A stretch of 63,734 bases of DNA, counting the filler, from Methanobacteriota archaeon (GTDB lineage: Archaea > JACRDV01): assembly GCA_024860865.1 (NCBI GenBank). It is 7 parts of 7 records of this genome, joined end to end, with 100 filler letters (N's around TTAATTAATTAA, not from the genome) between each part and the next. Parts side by side here need not be neighbours in the genome. Positions count along the whole stretch, not along the records: positions 35,049 to 44,965 come from JACRDV010000109.1; 6 more parts are not named here. One strand, 5' to 3'. The position numbers were made by a program, and so were the translations under genes. The notes beneath the pieces were generated by a model. That model had not been told where the DNA came from. It saw only the letters and a program-made list of their open reading frames with translations, and did not search any database. Every line of letters starts with the position of its first letter. Within the stretch, counting starts at the first letter, position 1. Positions 9,674 to 57,697 of this stretch are shown here, piece after piece.

Positions 9674-9775
9674 NNNNNNNNNNNNNNNNNNNNNNNNNNN
9701 NNNNNNNNNNNNNNNNNTTAATTAATTAANNNNNNNNNNNNNNNNNNNNNNNNNNNNNNNNNNNNNNNNNNNNAC

Positions 9776-15319: not shown

Positions 15320-16249
15320 ATGTATTCTTTTAAAGCAATAATTAAATTATTATTAGTTTTTCTAGTAATAGTTCAAATTTCAGCAGCCCAAGAATTGCCG
15401 TTTGAATCATTCACTGAAGAGACGAATCTGCCCTCAGGTATAATTGAGATTAAAATCCAAGAAAATGGCTGGGTTTCGGTTAGAGCTGGAATTGTTGCCT
15501 ATGGTCGCACTGAATTAAGCCTACCCTACAAAACAGATAACCTAGAGGTGTTTGATGCTGAAGGTACGCTGCCTTATACCAAAAATAAAACTATTTTGGT
15601 TTTCACTCCAAGAGCAAACGAAACTTATATCTCATTTTCAACTGATGCCTTAACTTCCAAAAGTGGTTCAATATGGGTTTTAAATTTCACTTCTCCAACT
15701 TTATTTGAAATGCTAGAGATTAATGTCTATTTATCAAATGCTATACTAAGAAGCTCTGAATCTTATCCTAAAACTGAACCTTTCGTTGAACCATTCAACA
15801 ATCAAATAAAAATTTCATGGCTAGTCTTTGCTCCAGATGAGCTTGATTTCACAATAAAATATCAGTTAAAAACAGCAGAAGTCTACAAAAACCAATGGTT
15901 AATGCTATTAGGAACAATTTTAATTTTAATTGGAGCAATTAGTGGGATTATCTATTTAAAAAGAAGAAAAATGTTGCCAAAAAGTCAACTTCAGGTTATT
16001 CCCCCAGCCCTTAAAGTTATTTTGCCAACATTAGATGAAAAAGAAAGAAAAATTATAGAAGAATTATTGAAAGCTGGTGGAAAAACTACACAGGCTAAAT
16101 TATTTCACCTAACTGGACTTCCCAAATCCAGTTTACACAGGATTCTAAAGGAACTTGAAAATAAGAATTTAATTAAAATCACTGAGATCGGAAAAACAAA
16201 TCTAGTGGAGTTAGCAGGTAAGTCACTCGGAGAAAATGTTCCAAAATAA
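15320..16249 (+). CDS. Membrane-anchored transcriptional regulator (signal peptide, extracellular beta domain, TM helix, C-terminal wHTH)
   Basis: N-terminal signal, TM WLMLLGTILILIGAISGIIYL followed by KRRK, then LDEKERKII...TQAKL...KSSLHRILKELE...GKTN. Confidence 0.85.
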   Translation: MYSFKAIIKLLLVFLVIVQISAAQELPFESFTEETNLPSGIIEIKIQENGWVSVRAGIVAYGRTELSLPYKTDNLEVFDAEGTLPYTKNKTILVFTPRANETYISFSTDALTSKSGSIWVLNFTSPTLFEMLEINVYLSNAILRSSESYPKTEPFVEPFNNQIKISWLVFAPDELDFTIKYQLKTAEVYKNQWLMLLGTILILIGAISGIIYLKRRKMLPKSQLQVIPPALKVILPTLDEKERKIIEELLKAGGKTTQAKLFHLTGLPKSSLHRILKELENKNLIKITEIGKTNLVELAGKSLGENVPK

Positions 16250-23666: not shown

Positions 23667-23900
23667 GAGAACAAAACCCCTCCGGGGAAATAAGACTGTT
23701 GTTTATCCANNNNNNNNNNNNNNNNNNNNNNNNNNNNNNNNNNNNNNNNNNNNTTAATTAATTAANNNNNNNNNNNNNNNNNNNNNNNNNNNNNNNNNNN
23801 NNNNNNNNNAAACCCCTCCGGGGAAATAAGACTGTTGTTTATCCAGTTCTTTTGTTGAAGGGATAATTGTTGTTTTTATTTTTCAACAATATTAGAAATT
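23667..23900. mobile_element. Probable IS end interrupting the MtrA-like gene; 36 bp repeated on both sides of the gap
   Basis: 23674-23709 is identical to 23810-23845. The sequence begins exactly where MtrA similarity stops. Family not assignable. Confidence 0.4.
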
Positions 23901-24933: not shown

Positions 24934-27792
24934 TCATCTCCAAAAGCGTCTTGTTTGAACATAAATTTTCTCTGCATTCAATATATCTCTATAAAATTCA
25001 TCTTCACTTCGATGGAAATGCCCTAATATTCTAGTTGCTGTCTCTGGCCCAACTCCATGGCCTGCCATTGCAATGATTGCTTGCTTTCCATTAGACAATA
25101 CTAGTTGTGCATTTTGCCAAATTCTCCTGAGATTTTTTCTTTCCTCTTGGGACAACCCTTTTTTGCTCTTATATTTTTTAACTATATGTTCACTTTCAAC
25201 ATCTCTAACTCTTAAAGCTGCTAGTAACCTTGAACTGCATTTTTGACAACTTGGTCTTTCATCTAAATTTTTTATTGTCATTGTCGTAGTCCACTGTCCG
25301 CAATAGACACAGAGCAGTTTGACTTTTTCATTTAATAGACGATGTTTTAGAGCTTTTAAAATAGCTCGCTCTGCCCTTTCAGGAACTAATAATTCCTTTT
25401 TAATGAGCTGATCAACACCAACTAAACTAATTGGAGAAAAGTTTGCGCCAGTTGGTTTAGAAGCAGTAATAATTTCAATTTTATTATTTTGAATGAGTTC
25501 TAAAATTTCCTCAGTTTTTTTGACATCTAATCTTTCGAGAGATTCTCTCACAGCTTCCCAATAAATTGGGGTGTTTTCAAAGCTTCTTAGCAATTTTGGC
25601 AAGCTAACTTTATCATAATCAACTTCTTTCTCAATTGCTCCAAATTTCCTTCCAACGTGTACTAACCTCCATCGGAGCAAGGGCATTTGCTTTAAAGTCA
25701 TCCTTATTATTGGCTCAACTTCAGAAGGTTTTATAGTGAAAAGCAATTCTTTAACTATCTCTAGGTCAGCTTTTACTGGCAACTCTAGCGTAATGCGATA
25801 TGGATCTGATTGCATACCAACGCTGCTCCCAAACCTTGCAGTTAATAAAATTGCAATCAACCTGCCAAGCGTTTCATTTGTAAGCGTTCCAAAACAAGAG
25901 TTAATTATAACAAATCTATCTACTGCTTCGATGAGCAGCTGTTTATCCGTAGGTACGGGCATTTTTTGATTAAGCTGCTTTTGGATTAGAGATATAACTT
26001 TTTTCAAAGCGTGCTTTTCTGCTGAATATTCTACAAATAATTCGCTAGCGACTCCATCAGATTTAATTCCCTCTTTCAGTTTTCCTCCAATGAACCCTCT
26101 GAGCCGTCCAACTTCTTGTGCAACTTCAAAAGGAACCGGAATTTCCTCCCCAATCCAGGATGGAATTGCTCCGGTAGGATCATTAATTGGCTCAACTTGA
26201 ATTTTATCCCCAAGGATTCCAACTACTCTCCAAGGTTGGCCCCTACATATTACTGCAACATTCGGTTGAATATAATTTGCAACAAATGCTTCATCGAATG
26301 AACCAACTGGTGTTTTTGTGAGGAGGTTAATTACTAAATATCTTTTTTCATCTGGAATCATTGAAAGCGTTCCATAGTAGTATTTCCACCCTCCTCTTTT
26401 TATGCTGAAAGTTTCAGTGACTCCATCGAAAAACAAAATACTTGGAAACTGTGAGCTGAGATGTTTAACTATGCTTGCAAGAGTTTGCTTATCGAGAGCT
26501 CTAAATGGGTAGGCTCTTCGTATGATCTGGAGCGCTTTATCAAGAGTTAATCGCCTAAAATCAATCGCCAACCCAACAACTTGGTGAGCAAGAGCATCAA
26601 GTGCATTCTCTTGCGTTTTAACCGGTTCAAGCTCCTCATTTTTAGCCTTTCTAGATACTACAGCTGCCTCAAGGATATCATCAGCCTCAGTAGCAATAAT
26701 TACCCCTTTTGAAATTAAACCTACTTTATGGCCAGAACGTCCTACTCTTTGAACCAATCTAACTACTTGGTGAGGAGACATGTATTGAATTGCTAAATCG
26801 ACACTGCCAACGTCTATACCTAACTCCATTGATGAAGTAGCGATTATTCCTTTCAGCATCCCACTCTTAAAGGCTTCTTCGGTTGAAACCCTTGATTCAC
26901 GAGAGAGCGAACTATGATGGACTTCTAGCGGAAACTTTTGATCCCAAAATTTAATGCGAGAACCTAAAATTTCTGCCATTTCTCTGGTGTTAACAAAAGT
27001 TAGAATTGAAGTGTGTTTTTCGATTAGTTCTTTTATAGAGCGAATTCTTGCAACTGCGCTTGCTGTTGTAAAAAGTTGAGGAGCAAGTTCTCTGTCATCC
27101 GAAGTTGGGGATGGGCTCTCCACCTTGAGCTCCATCAAATGGGAAGTAGAAATCTTTACAATTTCAGCAGTTCGATCTGTGCCGACTAAAAATTTGGCTA
27201 CAATTTCTGGTGTGCCTATGGTTGCGCTTAAACCAATCCTTTGAAATTCTTTTCCTGTGAGCTCTCGCAATCGCTCAAGAGCAATTGAAAGCTGAGCTCC
27301 CCTTTCATCTTCAGCAAGCTCATGGATCTCGTCAATTATTAGCCATCGAACGCCTCTTAGGTACTCTTTGAGAATTTTACCTGGTAAAATTGCTTGAAGT
27401 GTTTCGGGCGTAGTTATTAACATTGCAGGCGGCTTCTGAGCTTGGGCTCTTCTTTCAGTTACAGAAGTATCACCGTGTCTCACCATTACTGGAATAGCAA
27501 GCTCTTTGCCCAACCATTCCAGCCTTCTTAACAGATCCCGATTGAGTGCTCTAAGCGGAGTAATGTATAAAATACCAATGCCGCTAATCTTGTCCTTCGA
27601 CTTCAGATACAAATCAAAAATCGGGAATATCGCTGCTTCCGTTTTTCCAGCACCAGTAGGGCCTATCAGCAGCACATTCTTTCCTTGCAAGATTAGCGGA
27701 ATTGCCTCTGCCTGTGGCTCAGTTGGCCTTTCAAAGCCCATTTTTTTAATAACACTTTGTATTTCCGGAGCGAGCAGTTCAAAAACGTTCAT
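24934..27792 (-). CDS. lhr: Lhr-family SF2 helicase
   Basis: PTGAGKT, DEIHE, SAT, HHSSLS, QRVGRSGH, IPSW.GE and C-terminal CxxC..CxxC. Confidence 0.92.
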   Translation of the reverse strand: MNVFELLAPEIQSVIKKMGFERPTEPQAEAIPLILQGKNVLLIGPTGAGKTEAAIFPIFDLYLKSKDKISGIGILYITPLRALNRDLLRRLEWLGKELAIPVMVRHGDTSVTERRAQAQKPPAMLITTPETLQAILPGKILKEYLRGVRWLIIDEIHELAEDERGAQLSIALERLRELTGKEFQRIGLSATIGTPEIVAKFLVGTDRTAEIVKISTSHLMELKVESPSPTSDDRELAPQLFTTASAVARIRSIKELIEKHTSILTFVNTREMAEILGSRIKFWDQKFPLEVHHSSLSRESRVSTEEAFKSGMLKGIIATSSMELGIDVGSVDLAIQYMSPHQVVRLVQRVGRSGHKVGLISKGVIIATEADDILEAAVVSRKAKNEELEPVKTQENALDALAHQVVGLAIDFRRLTLDKALQIIRRAYPFRALDKQTLASIVKHLSSQFPSILFFDGVTETFSIKRGGWKYYYGTLSMIPDEKRYLVINLLTKTPVGSFDEAFVANYIQPNVAVICRGQPWRVVGILGDKIQVEPINDPTGAIPSWIGEEIPVPFEVAQEVGRLRGFIGGKLKEGIKSDGVASELFVEYSAEKHALKKVISLIQKQLNQKMPVPTDKQLLIEAVDRFVIINSCFGTLTNETLGRLIAILLTARFGSSVGMQSDPYRITLELPVKADLEIVKELLFTIKPSEVEPIIRMTLKQMPLLRWRLVHVGRKFGAIEKEVDYDKVSLPKLLRSFENTPIYWEAVRESLERLDVKKTEEILELIQNNKIEIITASKPTGANFSPISLVGVDQLIKKELLVPERAERAILKALKHRLLNEKVKLLCVYCGQWTTTMTIKNLDERPSCQKCSSRLLAALRVRDVESEHIVKKYKSKKGLSQEERKNLRRIWQNAQLVLSNGKQAIIAMAGHGVGPETATRILGHFHRSEDEFYRDILNAEKIYVQTRRFWR

Positions 27793-30971: not shown

Positions 30972-31057
30972 GCGGCCGTAGTCCAGCCTGGTAAGACGCG
31001 AGCCCCCCATTGTTTAGAGGAAAGCTCGTAACCCGGGTTCAAATCCCGGCGGCCGCA
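30972..31057 (+). tRNA. tRNA-Gly (anticodon CCC as encoded) with a 13-nt intron at 37/38 (31010-31022)
   Basis: Acceptor stem GCGGCCG/CGGCCGC, anticodon stem CGAGC/GCTCG, T arm CCGGG-TTCAAAT-CCCGG, discriminator A, no encoded CCA. Confidence 0.85.
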
Positions 31058-31317
31058 CACACTCGAGTTTTTCCGATTTTTCTTTGCCACCAATCCAAAA
31101 GTTTTGCTTGATTTAGTAGAAAATTATGGCAAAGAGCCTGGTTAGCGCATCTGGATTACTTCTAGGCGTATTACACCTAAGCTTTCTAGCAAAAAATTTG
31201 CAATGATGTTTGGGTCTNNNNNNNNNNNNNNNNNNNNNNNNNNNNNNNNNNNNNNNNNNNNTTAATTAATTAANNNNNNNNNNNNNNNNNNNNNNNNNNN
31301 NNNNNNNNNNNNNNNNN

Positions 31318-34948: not shown

Positions 34949-35048
34949 NNNNNNNNNNNNNNNNNNNNNNNNNNNNNNNNNNNNNNNNNNNNTTAATTAA
35001 TTAANNNNNNNNNNNNNNNNNNNNNNNNNNNNNNNNNNNNNNNNNNNN

Positions 35049-35309
35049 CGCAAAAAAGAAACCTTCGTGGAAATGATCGCCTTGGGTATCAGATAATTGT
35101 CCTAGCTCCTCAAAGAGTGAAACTAGAGTCTCAGCATCTTTAGGATTTTTACACTTCAGCATACTCAACATAAAATAGTCTCTGATGTCACTTAGTATTG
35201 CTATGTCTTCCTCTGTAATCGACCCAGTTTGCAACCTATGTTTTAAAAGTTTATCCTGCTTTGAAATTTCTAGTGCAAGCTTCTTTGCTAACTTTTTGTT
35301 GGTCATCAT
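35049..35309 (-). CDS. Hypothetical protein, truncated by the gap
   Basis: Open frame from an ATG to the contig end; no recognisable motif. Confidence 0.5.
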
Positions 35310-35375
35310 TTAAATCATTGACTCAGAATCAATCTGATAATTGCATGAGGTGCTAAACCTCAACTAATTTAAATT

Positions 35376-35816
35376 TCATTCAGTTGGTGTTGTTGGCATT
35401 GCTCCTTTTGTAGTGAAAAATCCAACTATAGCAGTGATGACTAGTAATCCACCTAAAATTTCTAATGCTGGCAAAGTGCCATCGCGGCAGGGCATCCCTG
35501 GTGCACACACTCCGATTAGAACAGTTGGTAGAGCTATAACAATTACGCCCAAGGCAGCTAAAATAACATTTAAAACTTTTTTCGTTTCTACCTGCTTACT
35601 GGCTATTAGAGCTAGAGCAGAGATAATAATCAAAGCTCCTGCCCCTAATTCTGACTGAGCTGTCCATGTGCACTTCATAGGTATTATCATTCCCATTTTG
35701 GTTTCCATCATTTTGCCATAGTATTCGCAAACTGGTAAGATATACCGTGGAACAACCATGACAAGAATACCAATTAGTGCAGCCACTCCTCCTAAAATCT
35801 TTGAAATTTCTGCCAT
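35376..35816 (-). CDS. DUF4418-like membrane protein
   Basis: PVC...MKCTWTA and IGVC...MPC motifs, 4 TM helices, GGTGG RBS. Confidence 0.85.
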   Translation of the reverse strand: MAEISKILGGVAALIGILVMVVPRYILPVCEYYGKMMETKMGMIIPMKCTWTAQSELGAGALIIISALALIASKQVETKKVLNVILAALGVIVIALPTVLIGVCAPGMPCRDGTLPALEILGGLLVITAIVGFFTTKGAMPTTPTE

Positions 35817-35860
35817 AAGACCACCTATTCTTTTGAAATTGACATTAAAGTCTTAAATTT

Positions 35861-36030
35861 CTTACCAGTTGAAAACGTTCAAAAGAATTGCAAATAATTT
35901 TTTAAAAAGAAAGAATTGACTTTTTCTGTTTTTATTATTGCCAATACCCGACCAAAAGAACTATAAAATAAAGAATGCGCAAAAGAACGTTTACAATTCC
36001 TCTATTTTCTGAGATTGGCAATTATTAAGG
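35861..36030 (-). repeat. Regulator-tail/promoter cassette, copy D (most decayed); palindrome at 35869-35882
   Basis: CTTACCAG-TTGAAAACGTTCAA, with residual similarity CAATACCCGACCAAAAGAACT and TTTACAATTCCTCT to 42996-43070. Confidence 0.75.
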
Positions 36031-36033
36031 TTT

Positions 36034-37224
36034 TTAATTATTTTTTGATGAAACATCTCGATATTCTAATATGTTACCATAGATTGGATAAAGAGCCGCT
36101 AGAAGGCCGGTTAGAATAGCAAAAATCAAGCTAGATACAATCAATGAACCAATATAAAGAGAAGTTGGCCACAGATACGGGACCCTTAATGAGGCTACAA
36201 TTAAATTTTTAAAACTGTAGGCAATTGTTGTACAAAAAATAATTCCTAAAAATCCTCCAATAGTTGTTAGTAAAATTGCTTCCAATACGATTAATTTAAA
36301 AATTAAGCCCTGAGAGGCACCCTTAGCTCGAAGTGATCTCATCTCGTTACGGCGCCCATTAATTATTCCAGAAAAAGCAATGCAGATTGTTAGTAAAGAT
36401 ATTGCCCAAAGAATGCTACCTACAATGAGTGAATTTTGTCTTAAACTCCTTAATTGGTGTTTAACCGAATCTCTTAATTTATCTGCAGTTATTATAGACA
36501 CATCAGAAAGGTTGGAAGTTATAAATTCGGCTACTTGCTCAGATTTTTCGCTTGATTTAATTTGAACGAGCACAACAGAAACGGGTTTAACATCTTTTAG
36601 CCCAAAGTTTTCATAAATCGTTTCTATTGGCATAAATACGGCCCTATCAAGGCCAATTCCCGTAGGCTTAAGAATTCCAACGACTTTAAATGAACAGTTA
36701 TAAAATTTAACTGAATCTCCTATATTATACCAAACTTCGCTGCCAATAATAATTTCATTTTTATTTAGCGGTTTTTTTAGATTTGTTTTTAAAAAAGAAG
36801 TTATAGTAAAATCTGTTTTTGAGTTGAAACCTATCAAAAACATGCTCCCAGCAGTACAGCACTCAGCTTCTAAAGATTCAAGGAATAACAAAGATGAAGT
36901 TTTTTTAACTCCTGGAATTGCTGCTACTTGTTGTTCAATGCTTCCATTCATTGAAAAAATAGCTGGCTCGCCAATTACTAAGGCAGTTTGCATCTGTGTT
37001 TCGTATCCTTTAGGACCTACCACTAAGTCAGCACCTAATACAGAAGTCCCTGTTTGTAAACCATTTTCTATACTTTTAACAAACAATGTTGTTGAAAATA
37101 AAATTCCCACTGCTACTGCAGCACTAAAAATAATAATTGCGGTTTCAAATGATGCGCGCTTGAGGTTTTGTTTTATCAGATAAAAGAGACTAAAACTATC
37201 CATCAAAAAGACCTTTAAATACAC
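36034..37224 (-). CDS. MacB/FtsX-type ABC permease
   Basis: LGADLVV, RRNE...LRA.GA and LEA...GG..G motifs; 4 TM helices; vicinal CC in the outside domain. Confidence 0.88.
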   Translation of the reverse strand: MYLKVFLMDSFSLFYLIKQNLKRASFETAIIIFSAAVAVGILFSTTLFVKSIENGLQTGTSVLGADLVVGPKGYETQMQTALVIGEPAIFSMNGSIEQQVAAIPGVKKTSSLLFLESLEAECCTAGSMFLIGFNSKTDFTITSFLKTNLKKPLNKNEIIIGSEVWYNIGDSVKFYNCSFKVVGILKPTGIGLDRAVFMPIETIYENFGLKDVKPVSVVLVQIKSSEKSEQVAEFITSNLSDVSIITADKLRDSVKHQLRSLRQNSLIVGSILWAISLLTICIAFSGIINGRRNEMRSLRAKGASQGLIFKLIVLEAILLTTIGGFLGIIFCTTIAYSFKNLIVASLRVPYLWPTSLYIGSLIVSSLIFAILTGLLAALYPIYGNILEYRDVSSKNN

Positions 37225-37253
37225 AGTATAGGTGTTTCAAGCAAAATCCGAAA

Positions 37254-37481
37254 TCAACGAAATAATTTCTTTAAATTGAGCCTAAAGGAGCTTCCTAGCT
37301 GTTTTAATCTGGTCTTAAAGTAATAAGCTAGCACGAAAGGACCAAATAATAAGCAACCCCCACAACTCGTACAGATACCTCTACATGCTGTGCTGAATAT
37401 GGTTACAAATGAGAAAGAAGAAAGAAAAAATATAACGCTTGTTATTCTTTCACGAAAGTATTTTTTAATGTTTCTCAGCAA
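37254..37481 (-). CDS. Small membrane protein with C-x3-C-x2-C-x2-C
   Basis: ACRGICTSCGGC between hydrophobic segments; starts 1 nt after the upstream stop. Confidence 0.65.
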   Translation of the reverse strand: MLRNIKKYFRERITSVIFFLSSFSFVTIFSTACRGICTSCGGCLLFGPFVLAYYFKTRLKQLGSSFRLNLKKLFR

Positions 37482-37482
37482 T

Positions 37483-38394
37483 TCAGGGTCCTCTTGAAAA
37501 ACTTAGGGCTCCATGATTGCATTCAATAATACATTCCTTACACATATTGCATAAGTGCCGATCTATTTTAATAGACCCTGATTGTATTGCCCATACAGGA
37601 CAGGAATTTTTACAATGCCAGCAATCATTACATTTCGATTGGTCTACTCTTATTTTATAAGTGAATCGTAACTTAGAGCCTAAGAAATGCAATAGAGATT
37701 GTAAAGCTCCAGCTGGACAGAAAAAGTTGCAGAATCCTCTTCCACCCTGCATAAAAATTCCAAAAACGAAAAGCCAGAGAAATAATGTTATGAGCGCGGC
37801 TGATGTCCAATGGCCGAAAAACAAATCGCGTAGGTCAAGAAGAAATGCACCCTCAATTATTCTATTTGTTAAAGCAAAGTTGCAATAAGAACAGCATACG
37901 CTGCTGAATTTAGCTTTAATTACATCACTGAATTTAATACCTACCGCTAGTGTAACAAATGCAGCAAGGAAGCCATATCTGATCGCAGTAGGACTTGCAT
38001 TGCTTAAGTTCATCTTAAACTTAGATGGCACTAATCTGCTTAAAGATTCTGTAAAAGAGCCGGCCGGACATAGCCAACCGCAGAAAAGTGGTCCAAATAG
38101 AAAGGCAATTGGGAGGAGAACAAGAATCATACCGCGTAATGGATAAACTGCCACTCTCTCTAAAATATCCCCATTAAATATCCAATCAACCGTCATTCTT
38201 AAACATGTAGAATGTATATCTGGTATATCTGTGCTAGCCTGCTGCCATGCGGGATTATTTGTAGTCCCCATTAAATATAGACCTGTTCTAGCCACTAAGG
38301 CAAATGGAGAAACTAATAGTAGAAACCCAACTATAAACATAAAGTATCTTAGCCAATTCCTCTTCAATTTTTTAATCTTTGATTCAATATTCAT
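37483..38394 (-). CDS. Membrane 4Fe-4S protein (NapH/MauN-like)
   Basis: FCGWLCPAG and FCNFFCPAG motifs plus two C-terminal ferredoxin CxxCxxCxxxC motifs. Confidence 0.9.
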   Translation of the reverse strand: MNIESKIKKLKRNWLRYFMFIVGFLLLVSPFALVARTGLYLMGTTNNPAWQQASTDIPDIHSTCLRMTVDWIFNGDILERVAVYPLRGMILVLLPIAFLFGPLFCGWLCPAGSFTESLSRLVPSKFKMNLSNASPTAIRYGFLAAFVTLAVGIKFSDVIKAKFSSVCCSYCNFALTNRIIEGAFLLDLRDLFFGHWTSAALITLFLWLFVFGIFMQGGRGFCNFFCPAGALQSLLHFLGSKLRFTYKIRVDQSKCNDCWHCKNSCPVWAIQSGSIKIDRHLCNMCKECIIECNHGALSFSRGP

Positions 38395-38398
38395 ATGA

Positions 38399-38953
38399 TC
38401 AACTGAGAATAACTGTTATTGGTAAAAACGCCAACTCTTTCTTTGTTTCAACATCAATGACTTTTAAGCCACCGCTGTATATCACGCCACTTGATGTGCC
38501 TTGTGGGATATGAAACTCAATATCTATGCCCATTCTCTGATTAGGCAGTATTGGTTTTTCGAGCTCAATTGTAGATTTATTCTTAAGTACCCAAGGCACA
38601 TGCGGTTTTCCTTCAACCCACTCAAAAGGAATTGTGCAGTTAACTAGAACCAACTGAATTGTGTAAGGCTTCTTCCCTTTATTTCTCAGTTCATGCGTGC
38701 CAACTTCAACTATCTGAGGACAGAAAATAGATTTGGGTAAACCTTGCTTGCTAACATATACCTCAACTTTTCCAGGGGATGCTCCTGGATACATACCCAT
38801 CCCGACAGGCATTCCCTTAGCAGCTGGAAAATTCATCCTGAAGTGCACAGCCTCAGATTGCGCCTTACTTGCGCGATAAAAGCCAGCGCCTAGCGTAAAT
38901 CCGAACGCGAGTATAAATAATACAGTTATAGCGATTATGCGTTTGTATTTCAT
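38399..38953 (-). CDS. Secreted or membrane-anchored hypothetical protein
   Basis: N-terminal hydrophobic helix and beta-rich body; first gene of the operon. Confidence 0.75.
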   Translation of the reverse strand: MKYKRIIAITVLFILAFGFTLGAGFYRASKAQSEAVHFRMNFPAAKGMPVGMGMYPGASPGKVEVYVSKQGLPKSIFCPQIVEVGTHELRNKGKKPYTIQLVLVNCTIPFEWVEGKPHVPWVLKNKSTIELEKPILPNQRMGIDIEFHIPQGTSSGVIYSGGLKVIDVETKKELAFLPITVILS

Positions 38954-38965
38954 TCAAATTCCTAA

Positions 38966-39207
38966 TTTGAAGGTAAGAAATGAATCGAACAAATTCGATT
39001 CACAATTTTTAAAGCGTATTTTTCTAATAAAATACCTTACCAGTTGAAAACGTTCAAAAAATAAATAAAAACTTTTAAAAAAGAAGAAATAATCTTTAAA
39101 AGCTTAATTACGCGTCAGTATCTGACCAAAGAAATTTTAAAGAAAGCTTTTGTGCTATTCAGCTTTAAAATTGCTCCAACAATTATCCGATTCACTTTTA
39201 GGTCTTC
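38966..39207 (-). repeat. Regulator-tail/promoter cassette, copy C; palindrome at 39044-39057
   Basis: AAAGCGTATTTTTCTAATAAAATACCTTACCAGT is identical to copy A. Also shares AGGTAAGAAATG and AGTATCTGACCAAAGAAA. Confidence 0.85.
38981..39002. promoter_or_regulatory. Perfect inverted repeat in the leader of the Fe-S/ABC operon
   Basis: TGAATCGAA-CAAA-TTCGATTCA. Confidence 0.6.
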
Positions 39208-39431
39208 TTAGTTACTTAAAAGACCATTTGGCTTTAGCGTACATCAGTTTCTCATATTAAAATTATTCTGAACACATAAATGATAATTCCTTTGTGAATT
39301 ACAAAAAGTAGGATGACATCAACTGGCAAACTAACTACTGTAATATTTGCAGTAAAACTATAATTCTGACTGAAGCTAGTTGCAATTATCGCAAAAAAAT
39401 AAACAAAAAATAAAAAAATAGTCTGTCTTTT

Positions 39432-41153
39432 TTAGAGTTTAGCTATCAAATCTTCTACAGCTTTGCGAGTTCCTGCGCGAGTTGCTCCTGCAACAATCAA
39501 TACATCCTTGCCTGTTCCGTATGGGTTGGCAAGATATTCAACTGCCCCATCAGTAGCAGTCCAGCTAACCTTTGAAATGCCCCTGTCGACTAAGTCTTTG
39601 ACTAGTGCATTTGCTTCTGATCCACCGACTAAGACTATATTATAAGTTGCTTTGGTTGTAGCTGTAATTTCGGTGTCAAGCACTGCAATTGTTTTTGCAA
39701 TATCATATCGGGCACTTGTTGAAACTGCTATACCAGTTGCCTTTGCAAGGTCTTTAATCTCTCCTTTGCCAGTGGTTTCAGTGCGCACCTTAATCCTGTA
39801 GGATTTAGCATCCGTACTTGGGAATATAATCTTAATGTTCCCTGGAAGTGCAAAAGTACTACCTGTAGTAAGGCTGTTAACATCAGTTGGAGGCCCATAT
39901 AGTGTTATTGATTTGATCATCTTATAGCCATCAGCATTTAACAAACCTACGCCACCTGCGCCTTTGGGGTAAGTCCAAGTAGAGAATTTCCAACCAGCAA
40001 TGACTTCATTGCCCTGAATCCATTCTACCATGCTGGTTGCAATTGTTACTTCAGCGCTTTTTATTGTTGTACCTAGAAAGACGCTATGGACAACTACAAC
40101 AACTTCGTCTCCGTATTTTACAACTTCACCTGCTTTTGCATACCCTGACTTAATAACAACTCCATCTTTTATGATCTCAACGTATGCCTTGTCGACGCCA
40201 CCACTTGACATTATATCTACTAGCTTTATTGAGTAAACGCCAACGGTTGTACTTTCGCCAAGGCTGAGAATTACTTTTGCTTTAGCAGTGGAACCAATTT
40301 TTAGATTTCCGCTATAAGTGCCATCTGATGTATTAACGAAAATGTAATCTTTTCCTCCGATTTTAAACGGAGAATACTGGGGTATTGGAGAATCCTTGTC
40401 TGCTAGAGATGTGCTACTGCCACTTGTGTAATTAACTGTTCGGAGGGAGTAGTATATTTGACCTGCGATGACATCTACATGAGGGGCTGTTGTGTGTGAG
40501 CTAGCTGAATTGCACATCTCCCATCTGAAGGCTGATGCTGGTATTGTTATGTTTTCCCATCTGCCTGGTTTGGTAGAAGTATAAAAAGTTGTGCCACCAG
40601 GCGAGTTGGGATTAGTGCTGCTGTATTTATAAAATACTTTGTAAAGACCACCAAGTGGGAATGTAAGTTTCCTGCTAGTATTAATAACAGTAGCGGCACT
40701 GATATTTTGCGTTGAAACTATGTAACGGCCTCCGATTTTTATCTCCCAATAAGCACCATCAGCTGCTTCCGGATATTGTGTTTTGTTACTAAACCAAGCT
40801 GTATTCAAATTTGTTACCCCGGTATTGTTCGTCCCAAACATAACAATCTCTGGGGTTTCGTAGTAGCCAGTTAACTCAACCGCACTTGGGTCAGCTGTAA
40901 CAGTTGAAGTTAGAAACGCAAGGTTTCCTATCTGAGCTGCAATATCTGCACCAGCAATTGTATCGCTAGCTCCACCAGGGGCTTTCTCACCGACAACTAC
41001 TACACTAGAAGGAGCGCCTGTAGTCTTGTTAATGAAGCCAAATTTTGTATAGTCTCCTTCGTAAGCAACTGGAGCAGCAACAGCACCAGCAAATGTGATA
41101 CCAAGCATCAAAGCACTCGTAGCTGCAGCAGTGATTTTTCTGAAAACGCTCAT
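39432..41153 (-). CDS. S-layer protein (Methanococcales/Thermococcales type)
   Basis: Signal peptide, VVVGEKA...D..A.ADIAA N-domain, IVLVGG..AN...VLIVAG..R.GT..A C-domain, many NxT/S sequons, strong GGAGGT RBS. Confidence 0.88.
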   Translation of the reverse strand: MSVFRKITAAATSALMLGITFAGAVAAPVAYEGDYTKFGFINKTTGAPSSVVVVGEKAPGGASDTIAGADIAAQIGNLAFLTSTVTADPSAVELTGYYETPEIVMFGTNNTGVTNLNTAWFSNKTQYPEAADGAYWEIKIGGRYIVSTQNISAATVINTSRKLTFPLGGLYKVFYKYSSTNPNSPGGTTFYTSTKPGRWENITIPASAFRWEMCNSASSHTTAPHVDVIAGQIYYSLRTVNYTSGSSTSLADKDSPIPQYSPFKIGGKDYIFVNTSDGTYSGNLKIGSTAKAKVILSLGESTTVGVYSIKLVDIMSSGGVDKAYVEIIKDGVVIKSGYAKAGEVVKYGDEVVVVVHSVFLGTTIKSAEVTIATSMVEWIQGNEVIAGWKFSTWTYPKGAGGVGLLNADGYKMIKSITLYGPPTDVNSLTTGSTFALPGNIKIIFPSTDAKSYRIKVRTETTGKGEIKDLAKATGIAVSTSARYDIAKTIAVLDTEITATTKATYNIVLVGGSEANALVKDLVDRGISKVSWTATDGAVEYLANPYGTGKDVLIVAGATRAGTRKAVEDLIAKL

Positions 41154-41204
41154 TTTATACCTCCTTATAGTTATTGAGCATTTTTTGTTACAGGTAATAC
41201 AGCA

Positions 41205-41403
41205 AAAATACCTTACCAGTTGAAAGCGTTCAAGAAAAAATTGAAAAGCAGTTAAAAGGAAAATAAATTTACAGAGAAACTTAGTAATGCGTCAATACCT
41301 GACCAGAGAAACTTTAAATGTCTTTTTGTATGGTTCACGCTTTAGAATTCCTCTGCCTTCCAAGTCAGCTATAATCCGGCTTATTTTTGGCCTTGAAAAG
41401 ATA
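41205..41403 (-). repeat. Regulator-tail/promoter cassette, copy B; palindrome at 41220-41233
   Basis: 41288-41403 matches 42992-43108 with 6 substitutions and 1 indel; TTGAAAGCGTTCAA. Confidence 0.92.
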
Positions 41404-41867
41404 CCGCTTTAATCTTTAATCAAAAAATAAAAATGGATGCAAAGTTACTGTATTTGCGTAGTTTTTTTCTCTTTCATTGAATCATACTAAAAAATCATAT
41501 TCCAATTTTTCTTTTCTTGAACACATAAGCCAATATTGGGTTTTATAATTGACTGAGATTGATGGTTCCAGAGCCAACCTTCAACTCCTTCCACCATGAA
41601 GTAAAAAAGGGACTAAAGAAGGTCAATTTGTTGTATTTGGTACGAAAAACTTTAAAATACTTGATTTGCTTATTTTTAACTTCAATTTGCTTAAATGAGG
41701 CGATTTTGCTTTAATTGAAGTTTTTCATTCTTGACTGAAAGAAGCGGGACGCTTCATGGGCGTTTAGCTAATTAAGTTTCTATTACGTGAAAACAACCGC
41801 TTCTTCCTCTGAAAATGTTAATAAAGACCTAGAAGAAGCTGAACTAATTTATTAGTATCCTTAGACA

Positions 41868-42179
41868 TTAGTGTTTAATTTCAACTTTAAACTTTTTTTC
41901 TATTAATTTAATTGACTTATAATCAGCATCTTTTGTTAAGAGAGTGAGCCCTCTATTTATGCACATGCTTGCAATCAATATGTCAACAGCAGGTAAAGGC
42001 CGACCAATTTTTCTTAATTTTGCTGCTATCTGAATAGATAATTCATAATCCTGCCTTTGAGGCCAAAGTACATCACAATGTTCTAAAGCAGGTGGATATT
42101 CAACAATACTAAAAATAGTTGTTAAGCCAAACTTATGTCCTAGGAGGATGTTTGTGTCAAGGACTTTGTTCTCTTCCAT
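41868..42179 (-). CDS. vapC: VapC/PIN-domain toxin
   Basis: VLDTNIL, E, DILIAS and LLTKDADY motifs. Confidence 0.85.
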   Translation of the reverse strand: MEENKVLDTNILLGHKFGLTTIFSIVEYPPALEHCDVLWPQRQDYELSIQIAAKLRKIGRPLPAVDILIASMCINRGLTLLTKDADYKSIKLIEKKFKVEIKH

Positions 42180-42424
42180 TCTTTTTCCTTAATTGTTTTA
42201 TAATATCTCTTCCACTCTAAATCAGATACTTCTTTTATAAGTTCTCTAGTTTCTGGCGGCATACTTTTTAATAACTCTGAACCTTTAGTCACGCTCTTTA
42301 ATCTTTCTAAATGCTCTTTAATACCTTTTCTTGCCACTTCGCTCCATTTTATCTCTTTATGCTTCTTCATTTCCTCGTAGAGTTCTTTAGGTATACTTAG
42401 TGTAATATGTGTCTTCTGTGCCAT
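42140..42424 (-). CDS. RHH antitoxin (VapB-like)
   Basis: ITLSIPKELYEEMKKHKEIKWSEVAR; overlaps the PIN gene. Confidence 0.8.
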   Translation of the reverse strand: MAQKTHITLSIPKELYEEMKKHKEIKWSEVARKGIKEHLERLKSVTKGSELLKSMPPETRELIKEVSDLEWKRYYKTIKEKEWKRTKSLTQTSS

Positions 42425-42855
42425 AATTAATTTAGAAGATTTTTTGAGTATTTAAATTTAATTCAGTAGTAGAAGTTAAATGAAGAATAAAGGATCCCAA
42501 ATGAGAGATTCCACAAGAAGAAAATTAGTTTATGGCAATTCAAAGCTCAAAGAATCTCTTTAATGCCAATCAGCGCGAATTTTCTATCGTCCATTTTTGC
42601 TTATACTTTTATGGCCAGCTATCAAAAGACTAGTGAAAAATGCCCACCAAAAAGAGTTAGATGCTTCTAGAGGTAGGAAATGACATTTTCTTTTTTTCCA
42701 TTGTGAAAATGCTTTGGGTTTCCAGTTCCATCTTTTATGCGGAATGTTGTCTGTCGTGTCTGTGGAAGCTATTAAGTTATGTCTGAAGTATCATTTTCCC
42801 ATTTTGGTTGTTAAGGATAGCAGCAAAATATGCCCAATCAAAAGGGTTTGGATAT

Positions 42856-43108
42856 TTTGGAGGTAAGAAATGGCCGCTATCCATTACATTAAAGCGTATT
42901 TTTCTAATAAAATACCTTACCAGTCGAAAGCGATCAGGAAAAAATTGAAACGCAGCTAAAAAGGAAAACAAATTTAAAAGAAGCTTAATAATGCGTTAGT
43001 ATCTGACCAAAGAAACTTTAAATGTCTTTTTGTATGGTTCACGCTTTAGAATTCCTCTGCCTTCTAAGTCAGCTATAATCCGGCTTACTTTTGGCCTTGA
43101 AAAAGATA
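42856..43108 (-). repeat. Regulator-tail/promoter cassette, copy A (native); degenerate palindrome at 42924-42937
   Basis: TCGAAAGCGATCAG has 3 changes from TTGAA-N4-TTCAA. No intact ORF lies immediately downstream. Confidence 0.9.
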
Positions 43109-44006
43109 AAGTTTCTTCCTTCCAAATATTTTCTTGCAACACCTCGCCACCTCCACTTTTAATAAAATCCACCACGCTTTTTTCCTCATCGGTTAGAAAA
43201 ACATGAACTATGTCTTTTTTCCTTTTTTTCCATGCTAAAAAGAAACCGAAAGAAAATGTTGCAACAGATACGCCCACTATAGGTAATAAATACCAATACT
43301 GATCCAATCCTGTTTCAGGATAAATCAAGCCTATATCAAATTTTTCATTCGCCTTTAAAGTTTTTGCCCAGACGAGTGTAACTCTTTTATTTTCTATACT
43401 AATATCATTTGGTGGCGTTGTGGTTGTTGATTTCCAAGCTGTAACAGTACAAGTAAGACAGCCAACGCATTCTTCACAAATGCAAGATCCTCCTTCCTTG
43501 CAAGTGCAATTTTGAACGCAGGCTAAATTATGCGTTGAGACATCTGGTAGCATACCTTCCGGCAGTCGCATGATGAAATTGAATTTTTTTACATCTTTTG
43601 GAAAGGAAAAACTCTTATAATAAAGAGTATTTTCCTCGAGATATCTTGGTTCAACATCAGAAAAATCAATACGAAAGGCATAATTTTCTCCTTTGTTAAG
43701 AGGTTTTTCAAAATTAATTCGGAGGGAATGAGGAAGTATTTCGTAGCCCAATTCTGTGCCTTGGGCTGAAACAGCGGAGAACTTGTTTATACGCTCCTCA
43801 GTTCCCATTTCAAAATAATCCATCCTCCCTTCTAGACAAGTTAAATTTATAAAAAATTGTTCAAATGTTTTTTTCTTATCAACATCTACAAAAATAGTAA
43901 CTTGATTAAAATAATAATCAGTAGAAAATGCAAGTACTATTACGGGTAAAAATAAGAATGAAATAATTGAGGCTAAATAGGCAAATTGCGCAAGATGTTT
44001 TTTCAT
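42996..44006 (-). CDS. Membrane-anchored wHTH regulator with a Cys-rich extracellular insert
   Basis: Signal peptide, CVQNCTCKEGGSCICEECVGCLTC, TM helix followed by KKRKK, then LTDEEKSVV..I...GGEVLQ...SRPKVSRIIADLE.RG. Confidence 0.88.
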   Translation of the reverse strand: MKKHLAQFAYLASIISFLFLPVIVLAFSTDYYFNQVTIFVDVDKKKTFEQFFINLTCLEGRMDYFEMGTEERINKFSAVSAQGTELGYEILPHSLRINFEKPLNKGENYAFRIDFSDVEPRYLEENTLYYKSFSFPKDVKKFNFIMRLPEGMLPDVSTHNLACVQNCTCKEGGSCICEECVGCLTCTVTAWKSTTTTPPNDISIENKRVTLVWAKTLKANEKFDIGLIYPETGLDQYWYLLPIVGVSVATFSFGFFLAWKKRKKDIVHVFLTDEEKSVVDFIKSGGGEVLQENIWKEETLSFSRPKVSRIIADLEGRGILKREPYKKTFKVSLVRY

Positions 44007-44145
44007 AATAGAATGTTTTTTAATGTTATTTTTAACCTTTTCTCACTTCTCGAGAATATAAAAGGAAAAAAAGAAGGTCTCTGCTACTTCGCTAGTGCTT
44101 TCTACATTTGATCCAAAAGAAAGTTACACAAAAAGGGAAGTGAGT

Positions 44146-44965
44146 TTACTTCCATGCAATAGATACGTCTGGTCCTATCTCTGCACCACAAAGCGCTGAA
44201 TGTTTAGCCGTTGTTGGCCCCAATGGCTCGTGACAAGCTTTGCGGCAGGCAGGTATCCTTTCTACTATTTTCTTAGTGCTGAGATCTACTATTAGCAAGC
44301 TTCCTTCGTCTGGTGTAGGCGTTCCTCTGCAAGGAATAATTGCAAATTTGCCATCTTTAGTAAGCACTATGTCATGCGCTTCTGCCGTGCCATTCTTTAG
44401 ATCTAGAGGTATCCTCTCCTTGATTGTAAAGGTAGCCGCATCAATTACAATTATTTCGCCCTTCTCACCTGCGTCTCGAGCCTCTTTAGACTTTCCATTA
44501 CTCACATAGAAGTATTTGCCATCTGGAGAAAGCGAGGATATGTGTGTCCATCCACCTGTCTCAATTTTTTTCTCTACCTTCTTGCTGACCATGTCGACTA
44601 GGTATATGTTTCCACCAGTATGGCCTGATACTAAAGCTTTCTTACCACCTTCCAACCATCCTACTCCACATACGGCCGTGTCTATCGGTATCTGATCCAC
44701 TACTTTGTTAGCAATTGGGTCATAATTATACATATTACCATCTGTCAAATCAAAGCCCCAAATTGTCTTAGCTTCTGAATCCCACTCAACACCGCAGAGT
44801 TTCTTTCCTACAGTCACCCAAGGAGCAACTGTTTTCGTAGCTAAGTCTATTGAAGTTATGCCGCCGTCTAAGGAACCTACATAAAGAGTCTTTTCGTCTT
44901 TAGAAAGGACTACTCCGTGACCTGGTTTGCCTGTAACTATTCTGGATGCGCTCTTTGCAGCTAAG
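44146..44965 (-). CDS. YncE/YVTN-type beta-propeller protein, 5' cut by the gap
   Basis: Repeated blades (HGVVLSKDEKTLYV, LSPDGKYFYVSN, HDIVLTKDGKFA); C-terminal CRKACH. Confidence 0.8.
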
Positions 44966-45066
44966 NNNNNNNNNNNNNNNNNNNNNNNNNNNNNNNNNNN
45001 NNNNNNNNNTTAATTAATTAANNNNNNNNNNNNNNNNNNNNNNNNNNNNNNNNNNNNNNNNNNNNA

Positions 45067-57285: not shown

Positions 57286-57697
57286 AGCATATCTCCATTT
57301 TTCTTTGTTATTAGCAAATAAATAGGCAGAATTTAAAAGCTTTTTCGAGAGATAAAACGAAAACTTTACTTCAATGTACCCAAATTTCCTTTTAGAAAGC
57401 AATATTTGCGAGGAAACTCTTTGGAAATCNNNNNNNNNNNNNNNNNNNNNNNNNNNNNNNNNNNNNNNNNNNNTTAATTAATTAANNNNNNNNNNNNNNN
57501 NNNNNNNNNNNNNNNNNNNNNNNNNNNNNTCGGGTATGTGCATTTTTATCAGTATTACTTTTTTTAAAAATAATAATACTTAAAACTTCCGAGTTTTAAA
57601 CCATATTTGCTTCTTATATGGGAAGTTCGCTAAAATCCCCTAAAAGAGGAAAAATACAACCGTTAAATTGAATTTTAGTTTTTACCTAATTATAGGC

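Follow-up and report, generated by a model that had tools for sequence, protein, structure and literature searches.

A conserved two-part promoter cassette linked to a membrane-anchored DUF7343 regulator gene and copied with its 3' end in an archaeal contig

In the genome of the Methanobacteriota archaeon JACRDV01 (assembly GCA_024860865.1), a gene for a putative membrane-anchored regulator with a winged helix-turn-helix (wHTH) domain of the DUF7343 family is followed by a block of 170-250 nt, which is present in four direct copies, all on the minus strand and on one contig. The block is a promoter-operator cassette, not described before, that is linked to a membrane-anchored archaeal regulator as yet uncharacterised: it is conserved across Hydrothermarchaeota, both beside the orthologous regulator gene and at other promoters of envelope metal/redox genes, and in the genome studied here it was copied three times, carrying with it up to ~110 nt of the coding end of the regulator gene. 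That this conserved two-island module, copied here, is read by the adjacent wHTH protein acting as an activator is the explanation that we consider probable. The stretch of DNA analysed, 63,734 nt long and hereafter called the window, is made up of at least seven contigs joined by six identical linkers (N44-TTAATTAATTAA-N44); all four copies lie within a single 9.9-kb contig, at 35049-44965, and the genes of the locus, all on the minus strand, are arranged with the copies as follows:

42996..44006, minus strand: regulator gene, membrane-anchored wHTH protein of 336 aa (Pfam, family alignment A2, AlphaFold2 (AF2) model, 32 homologues)
42850..43103, minus strand: native module copy (repeat and motif searches)
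41868..42424, minus strand: VapB-like gene and PIN (VapC) gene, a toxin-antitoxin pair between the native and S-layer copies (Pfam PIN, E 2.7e-06)
41205..41403, minus strand: S-layer module copy (repeat search, tblastn, DNA alignment)
39432..41153, minus strand: gene of the S-layer family (573 aa, S_layer_C) downstream of the S-layer copy (Pfam, E 5.3e-25)
38966..39207, minus strand: operon module copy (repeat search, tblastn, DNA alignment)
36034..38953, minus strand: operon for a 184-aa secreted protein, a Fer4_5 membrane polyferredoxin, a 75-aa Cys-rich protein and a MacB/FtsX permease (Pfam)
35861..36030, minus strand: DUF4418 module copy (repeat search, DNA alignment)
35376..35816, minus strand: DUF4418 membrane-protein gene, downstream of the fourth copy (Pfam, E 2.9e-25; contig end at 35049)

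The four copies were recovered, at the positions that the initial annotation had assigned to them, as direct repeats on one strand. In the repeat search, 41205-41399 matched 42909-43103 with 89% identity over 195 nt, and two four-copy families of 66 and 62 nt, with 61-100% identity, were also found. The 22-nt motif CTTACCAGTTGAANNNNTTCAA, searched with up to 3 mismatches, gave 4 matches in the 63,734 nt, where 0.13 were expected and 0 of 100 shuffled sequences reached 4; the matches at 35861, 39036 and 41212 are perfect and the one at 42916, in the native copy, has 3 mismatches, so that the earlier description of a motif perfect in three copies and degenerate in the native one holds. The palindrome TTGAA-N4-TTCAA has three matches in the window, all in these copies (0.53 expected; 2 of 100 shuffles reached 3). 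When the window was scanned with a sequence model of the module, with filters off, the four copies scored 23.3-31.2 bits and no other match exceeded 15 bits, the next best (14.4 bits) being inside an open reading frame (ORF) for a 952-aa helicase.

Alignment of the copies (A1) contains two conserved islands, a distal one, TTTGGTCRGRTAYTGRC, at the regulator stop codon, and a proximal one, TTGAACGYTTTCAACTGGTAAG. Among the three gene-bearing copies, the proximal box is identical at 21-22 of 23 positions, and the spacer between the islands at 19-30 of 55. In the native copy, the distal element TAACGCAT (42998-42991) overlaps the stop codon of the regulator and is followed by a T-rich spacer, by a degenerate proximal box, GATCGCTTTCGACTGGTAAGG (42935-42915), and by the TATA-like TATTTTATTA. 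The S-layer copy has a distal TGACGCAT (41294-41287) and a proximal box GAACGCTTTCAACTGGTAAGG (41231-41211), with a TATA-like stretch next to it; the operon copy has a distal TGACGCGT (39117-39110), a proximal box at 39055-39035 and, again, TATTTTATTA as the TATA-like sequence. In the DUF4418 copy, which seems to be the oldest of the copies, the regulator fossil is weak and the distal element has been lost, and the box GAACGTTTTCAACTGGTAAGA (35880-35860) is followed by the TATA-like AAATTTAAG.

The claim that the native copy has no intact gene directly downstream was borne out, since no gene or remnant is found for 570 nt, up to the VapB-like gene. The gene-less stretch, 42425-42995, contains no ORF longer than 64 aa, and a decayed gene 3' of the native copy was rejected after a blastx search in which this stretch and the remaining intergenic regions were compared with every ORF of the window and of the related loci. 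The native box reads GATCGCTTTCG and departs from all 18 other promoters at A9 and A17; these mutations fit decay after the original downstream gene was lost or displaced.

To place the cassette in a wider context, species-representative genomes were scanned with the regulator protein. The scan returned 7 loci with full-length relatives (L001-L007, 35-41% identity), all from Hydrothermarchaeota metagenome-assembled genomes (MAGs), and 3 further loci with distant partial matches, which makes 10 related loci altogether; L002, L003 and L004 are mutually close, and so are L006 and L007. In L001, a genome of 57% GC whose regulator is 41% identical, the 21-mer GAACGCTTTCAACTGGTAAGG occurs twice with 0 mismatches, once 196 nt after the regulator gene and again ~5.9 kb further on. 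Both sites belong to a 38-nt repeat with 92% identity (D11), and their flanks cannot be aligned with the window; on the refutation test posed in the initial annotation, the motif is far better conserved in relatives than the rest of the block. The proximal box can be written GAACG(C/T)TTTCAAC, with a phylum-wide core AC-N2-TTTCA.

A looser search for the layout AC-N2-TTTCA, 5-10 nt, A/T octamer (e.g. TATAAATA or TTTAAATA) listed 17 sites, and the same layout was found directly 3' of the regulator gene in L001-L007, with one or two more promoters per locus. Alignment A3 comprises 18 promoters, among which C10 and TTTC do not vary; A9 and A17 are conserved in at least 90%, failing only in the native copy. 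The sequence-only model R1, run over 247,377 nt, recovered its 18 training sites and one new site, at L006:4638-4669 (20.4 bits), while the next score was 14.5 bits; this last match, at 26334-26375 of the window, was rejected as due to chance, being inside the helicase ORF and without a TATA. All 19 R1 sites are on the strand of the regulator. A module-like stretch 3' of the distant L009 homologue, seen by eye and unscored by R1 at E <= 10, was excluded from all counts. The scan of the window and of the related loci gave 19 sites in all, and in each of 8 genomes out of 8 (the window and L001-L007) a module comes directly after the gene of the orthologous regulator.

The position of the box just upstream of a TATA-like stretch, which had been noticed in the window, is a feature of all 19 promoters, in each of which the octamer is at a fixed distance; in the high-GC relatives the only TATA-like octamer is the one 8-10 nt downstream of TTTCA. 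This is the archaeal BRE/TATA layout (BRE, B recognition element), in which the A/T octamer comes shortly after the site and the gene starts on the same strand, and start codons with a Shine-Dalgarno (SD) sequence are 57-131 nt from the segment start. We find it hardly credible that the conserved stretch is instead an RNA or a small ORF, whether a terminator hairpin at the stop codon, a 5'-untranslated region (5' UTR) element or an antisense peptide (IPYQLKAF...). Pairing is possible within GTCAG-ATA-CTGAC at the stop codon, and G-U pairs survive four one-sided changes, but the hairpin has only -3.3 kcal/mol, lacks any double compensatory change and is disrupted in the native copy; likewise, a 29-aa antisense ORF runs through the native box, but in the three gene-bearing window copies, in L001b and in L005 the box is not covered by any ORF that has a start, and nucleotide identity is kept at all codon positions across a 21% difference in GC. 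No conserved ORF was found over the box on either strand, and the search of the whole window against Rfam returned a tRNA only, with no known RNA family for the block.

The initial annotation had restricted the signature to the palindrome, and this is too narrow, because the distal element overlapping the stop codon is also part of it. Elements of the (T)GACGC(R)T type, from one to three, are present in the 140 nt upstream of the boxes; 17 of the 19 promoters contain the strict 8-mer, at 59-60, 68-70 or 79-80 nt upstream of TTTCA and, as L001b has GGACGCAT at 80 nt, an in-phase ACGY element is present in 18 of 19. By our own count over 140 nt upstream of each box, 32 of the 40 ACGY occurrences are at 57-58, 66-68 or 77-78 nt, where ~2 would be expected if they were evenly spread. 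Steps of 10 nt place the distal elements on one face of the helix. In six of the eight genomes (window, L002-L004, L006-L007) the distal element overlaps or abuts the stop codon of the regulator, which explains why the conserved block takes in the end of the gene.

The copies differ in how much of the regulator gene they retain. By tblastn, the last 35 aa of the regulator were found at 97% at 41295-41399, in the S-layer copy, and its C-terminus, 31 aa at 52%, at 39118-39198, in the operon copy, where it is decayed; when the coding part alone was compared by local DNA alignment, the S-layer copy beat 500 of 500 shuffles, and the other two 497 of 500 each. Both proposals made earlier, namely that the copies hold the 3' end of the regulator gene and that the cassette was duplicated together with part of it, are supported by these matches and shuffle-tested alignments. 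Collinear homology that extends beyond the motif into non-functional sequence identifies a segmental duplication with a pseudogene fossil, and the S-layer fossil is without a start codon. Extra partial C-termini of the regulator number 2 in the window versus 0 in the 7 related loci, in a count that disregards complete genes and the L002-L004 tandem paralogues. Both islands are kept as the coding fossil decays.

As for the graded decay of the copies, the decay itself was confirmed, but it does not follow a simple gradation. The native and S-layer copies are identical at 88 of 90 positions in the coding fossil, which points to a recent event, and at 43 of 55 in the spacer; the native TATA region, instead, is identical to the operon copy at 11 of 11 positions and to the S-layer copy at 10 of 25. 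This mosaic shows that the copies have exchanged sequence, by recombination or conversion.

One could also regard the repeats as functionless scars of rearrangement, either att-like duplications from the integration of mobile DNA (the VapBC segment, for example) or what is left of tandem regulator paralogues, and the toxin-antitoxin pair between copies 1 and 2, the tandem regulator paralogues of L002-L004 and the recent event recorded by the fossils would all agree with this. Against it, the box is 21/21 identical in a 57% GC genome with unalignable flanks, the islands are kept while the flanks decay, and no integrase or transposase domain was found by Pfam in the 11 ORFs between and around the copies. 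Moreover, the copies are four and of unequal age, not two as in an att duplication, and nothing more of the regulator was detectable by blastx upstream of the S-layer fossil. Conservation across genomes has largely refuted the scars, which we consider very improbable.

The regulator itself contains a DUF7343 wHTH at residues 271-322 (Pfam, E 6.9e-07, 29.5 bits against a cut-off of 27.6). In the AF2 model (pLDDT 78), an N-terminal hydrophobic helix, read as a signal/anchor, precedes a beta-sandwich (30-230), a long helix (236-264) and the wHTH (273-333), the latter with three helices and a beta-hairpin wing at pLDDT ~90. Helix 236-264 is the one hydrophobic transmembrane (TM) helix of what would be a single-pass protein and is followed by KKRKK, and by the positive-inside rule the wHTH would be cytoplasmic and the N-terminal beta-sandwich extracellular. 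The loop 157-195, of low AF2 confidence, is a Cys-rich insert with ~10 Cys (CxxNCxCxEGGxCxCExCxxCxxC), which about half of the family members have and the others lack; it may be a site for a metal or a cluster. The family comprises 32 proteins, all uncharacterised, the closer of which are 44-64% identical to the regulator, and its wHTH is almost invariant (alignment A2). A sequence search of the PDB with the family profile gave nothing below E 0.1, and Foldseek with the AF2 model retrieved generic beta-sandwiches only (ribophorin I/OST1 and the M1 aminopeptidase N-domain), with no functional lead. A literature search on DUF7343 returned no papers, and we know of no member of the family with a known site or target.

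In the mechanism that we propose, the block would be the entire intergenic cassette of terminator, upstream site and promoter, having its home just 3' of the regulator gene. The archaeal TATA is usually centred near -26, and the TATA-like octamer begins ~14 nt after the start of TTTCA; if it were so centred, the box would span about -51 to -39, abutting the BRE, and the distal elements would lie near -104, -114 and -124. A site directly upstream of the BRE is the position used by archaeal activators. The adjacent wHTH protein would bind both islands and, because the box is just upstream of BRE/TATA, we infer recruitment of TBP/TFB and, hence, activation; the signal would be an extracellular metal or redox state, with the Cys-rich loop as its sensor. 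That the wHTH binds and that it activates the module promoters are predictions drawn from the sequence. More tentatively, and with slightly less than even confidence, we suggest an undescribed one-component system common to all seven Hydrothermarchaeota genomes, consisting of a membrane DUF7343 wHTH protein, a two-part operator and an envelope metal/redox regulon, rewired here by cassette copying.

Several observations weigh against this account. The motif scans covered one locus contig of this genome and 20-kb loci of the relatives and, since L002-L004 and L006-L007 are closely related, the independent promoters are ~12 and not 19. A second DUF7343/HTH_24 protein, of 309 aa, is encoded in the window at 15320-16249 on the plus strand, and the module-model scan of the window found no copy near it. 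The exact palindrome is found in 0 of the 10 related loci and so, contrary to what had been supposed, it is not the conserved unit, only AC-N2-TTTCA being invariant; the left half-site, in addition, is degenerate in promoters a and b of L002-L004, so that a simple symmetric dimer site is not established. The DUF4418 copy has no distal element, yet it has kept its box. Finally, AT-rich TATA-like runs are also present upstream of the box in the window copies, and the promoter position in the window rests on the clearer TATA of the high-GC relatives.

On the same side of the balance, the boxes of L006/L007 (TGAAA-CGA-TTTCA) and of the window (TTGAA-CGCT-TTCAA) have half-sites like those of Lrp/feast-famine regulatory proteins (FFRPs): according to PMC2715240, FL11 binds TGAAA[AAT/ATT]TTTCA, with a promoter consensus TTGAAA[W3]TTTCAA. 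The module could then be real, with its box read by another factor, for instance of the Lrp/FFRP type, and the DUF7343 gene would only adjoin the regulon or belong to it, without being its master; that such a gene can be among the targets follows from L002-L004, where the module drives a DUF7343 paralogue. We judge this unlikely. The FFRP form abcdeWWWedcba, as given in the same source, differs from the boxes in the centre (CGA or CGCT/CGTT), in the clade-dependent spacing and in the unconserved left arm, no Lrp/AsnC gene turned up in a Pfam scan of 61 window ORFs, and abutment of the DUF7343 stop codon in 6/8 genomes ties the module to that gene.

Somewhat less probable still is that the wHTH binds, as proposed, but represses or acts both ways, through looping, BRE occlusion, or because the true TATA is upstream of the box. 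Position-dependent dual action is known for archaeal regulators, islands ~65 nt apart would suit looping, and the AT-rich runs directly upstream of the window boxes (e.g. aaaagtttttatttattttt in the operon copy) could host such a TATA; in the high-GC relatives, however, the only TATA-like octamer is downstream of TTTCA, at its fixed distance, and in L001b and L006a the box is preceded by GC-rich sequence.

The genes behind the module were compared among loci. NosL-family lipoprotein genes are preceded by the module at L001b, L002a and c, L004c, L005 and L006b, a tally from which the unscanned downstream gene of L007 is left out; at L001b and L002a the operon consists of NosL, a small protein, MacB/FtsX and an ABC ATPase. 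The L001a operon encodes C_GCAxxG_C_C, a homologue of the 184-aa protein, Fer4_5, FrhB-like, S_layer_C and NosL proteins, so that homologues of the window 184-aa, Fer4_5 and S_layer_C genes are found within one module-led operon of L001, and the window FtsX protein, too, has homologues in the module-led sets of relatives. A tandem DUF7343 paralogue followed by a multihaem cytochrome is behind the module scanned in L002b, and the same tandem paralogue is found in L003 and L004. These tandem regulator paralogues of the Pyrohabitans MAGs, all module-driven, are:

L002:10995-11870
L003:10968-11897
L004:10998-11891

The relatives have 2-3 such promoters per locus, at the same kinds of genes and without regulator fossils, and because the kinds of target are shared, the multi-promoter regulon predates this genome. 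The earlier idea that targets were gained by duplication of the promoter module is thus correct as regards the copying of the cassette here, but not in the sense that these duplications built the regulon, the relatives being already multi-promoter. Literature searches on NosL, archaea, ABC transporter and copper, and on DUF4418, found nothing on this cluster and nothing relevant, respectively.

Further downstream in the Pyrohabitans MAGs there is a NosL-UbiA promoter, whose distal region is nearly identical to that abutting the regulator stop codon of L006/L007. This similarity suggests that genes may have been inserted between the regulator and its original target in the Pyrohabitans lineage too. 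A PIN-type toxin-antitoxin pair is beside the module in two genomes, at L004:13630-14387, where it follows a module-led NosL gene, and at 41868-42424 of the window, where it follows the native module; coincidence is possible.

The leaders downstream of the module have features of their own. The operon copy has an 8-10 bp hairpin in its 5' UTR, and a perfect 10-bp hairpin (with GAAUCGAAUU as one strand) is at 38985-39004 on the minus strand, in the leader of the 184-aa gene (whole-leader z -2.1); the other copies are without it. Several 5' UTRs contain a stretch like the 3' end of 16S rRNA (CACCTCC / TTACCTCC), able to pair with the SD of the gene itself:

L001:11054-11093
L001:17667-17706
Window, 42853-42872
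Window, 38963-38982
Window, ~42680

The second of the L001 sites precedes a TatA-like gene, and in the fold of the L001a leader the SD is sequestered (-23.3 kcal/mol, z -3.56). These stretches may add a layer of translational control.

As for the rest of the window, the linkers are at the following positions:

9674-9773
23710-23809
31218-31317
34949-35048
44966-45065
57430-57529

Because the contigs were joined artificially, gene neighbours across linkers, such as RuBisCO/AMP phosphorylase beside DUF4418, are not evidence of linkage. The ORF at 35001-35309 extends into a linker, and at 23710 the sequences of two contig ends overlap. Other Pfam matches in the window are family-B polymerase, TFE, PAN, Mch and aTrm56, which mark the DNA as archaeal. 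For the tRNA at 30972-31058, on the plus strand, ARAGORN gives an odd four-base anticodon, and the gene is confirmed as a tRNA by Rfam (50.8 bits); an intron is probably present.

Among the known systems, the closest are the transmembrane transcription regulators (TTRs), defined, in Demey et al. 2023 (PMC10269533), by a TM region together with a DNA-binding domain, both of them predicted; with its DUF7343 wHTH and TM helix 236-264, the regulator falls within this definition. TTRs, including ArnR/ArnR1 of Sulfolobus (PMC6396743), share with it the predicted TM helix and the DNA-binding domain in one polypeptide, the one-component design, a presumed action on promoters from the membrane and cell-surface targets. 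Here, by contrast, the DNA-binding domain is an uncharacterised DUF7343 wHTH, C-terminal and behind a putative extracellular N-terminal sensor. Lrp/FFRP operators, such as those of FL11 (PMC2715240), are similar in the half-sites, TGAA(A)/TTTCA, and in the location of the site at the promoter; they differ from the boxes described here, in which the centre is not W3, the spacing is of 3 or 4 nt according to clade, and only the right half and AC are invariant.

The bacterial ToxR/TcpP/CadC proteins resemble the system in the membrane-anchored winged helix and in the repeated upstream elements, which here are predicted sites; this family binds direct-repeat sites, of which the ACGY elements with their 10-bp phasing are reminiscent. 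No OmpR-type Trans_reg_C domain was found by Pfam, however, and the topology is reversed, with the wHTH C-terminal and the sensor N-terminal; moreover, the host being archaeal, the partner would be TBP/TFB and not sigma-RNA polymerase. Regulons can also grow by copying of cis-elements, with sites spread by repeats or mobile elements. The promoters of this locus are likewise of common descent, as their flanking non-functional homology indicates; the copied unit, on the other hand, is a whole cassette including the end of the regulator coding sequence, with no transposon features.

To our knowledge, very few archaeal transcription factors have known sites. The locus offers a concrete candidate operator, with two short islands, defined invariant bases and presumed natural loss-of-function variants in the native copy, together with a candidate set of targets for a phylum that is uncultured and comes from habitats rich in metals and sulfide. 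In the regulator fossils the sequence gives direct evidence that, in an archaeon, the promoters of a regulon can spread by cassette duplication, and not through new sites made by point mutation alone and, if the one-component reading is true, these datable coding fossils would record how the regulon changed.

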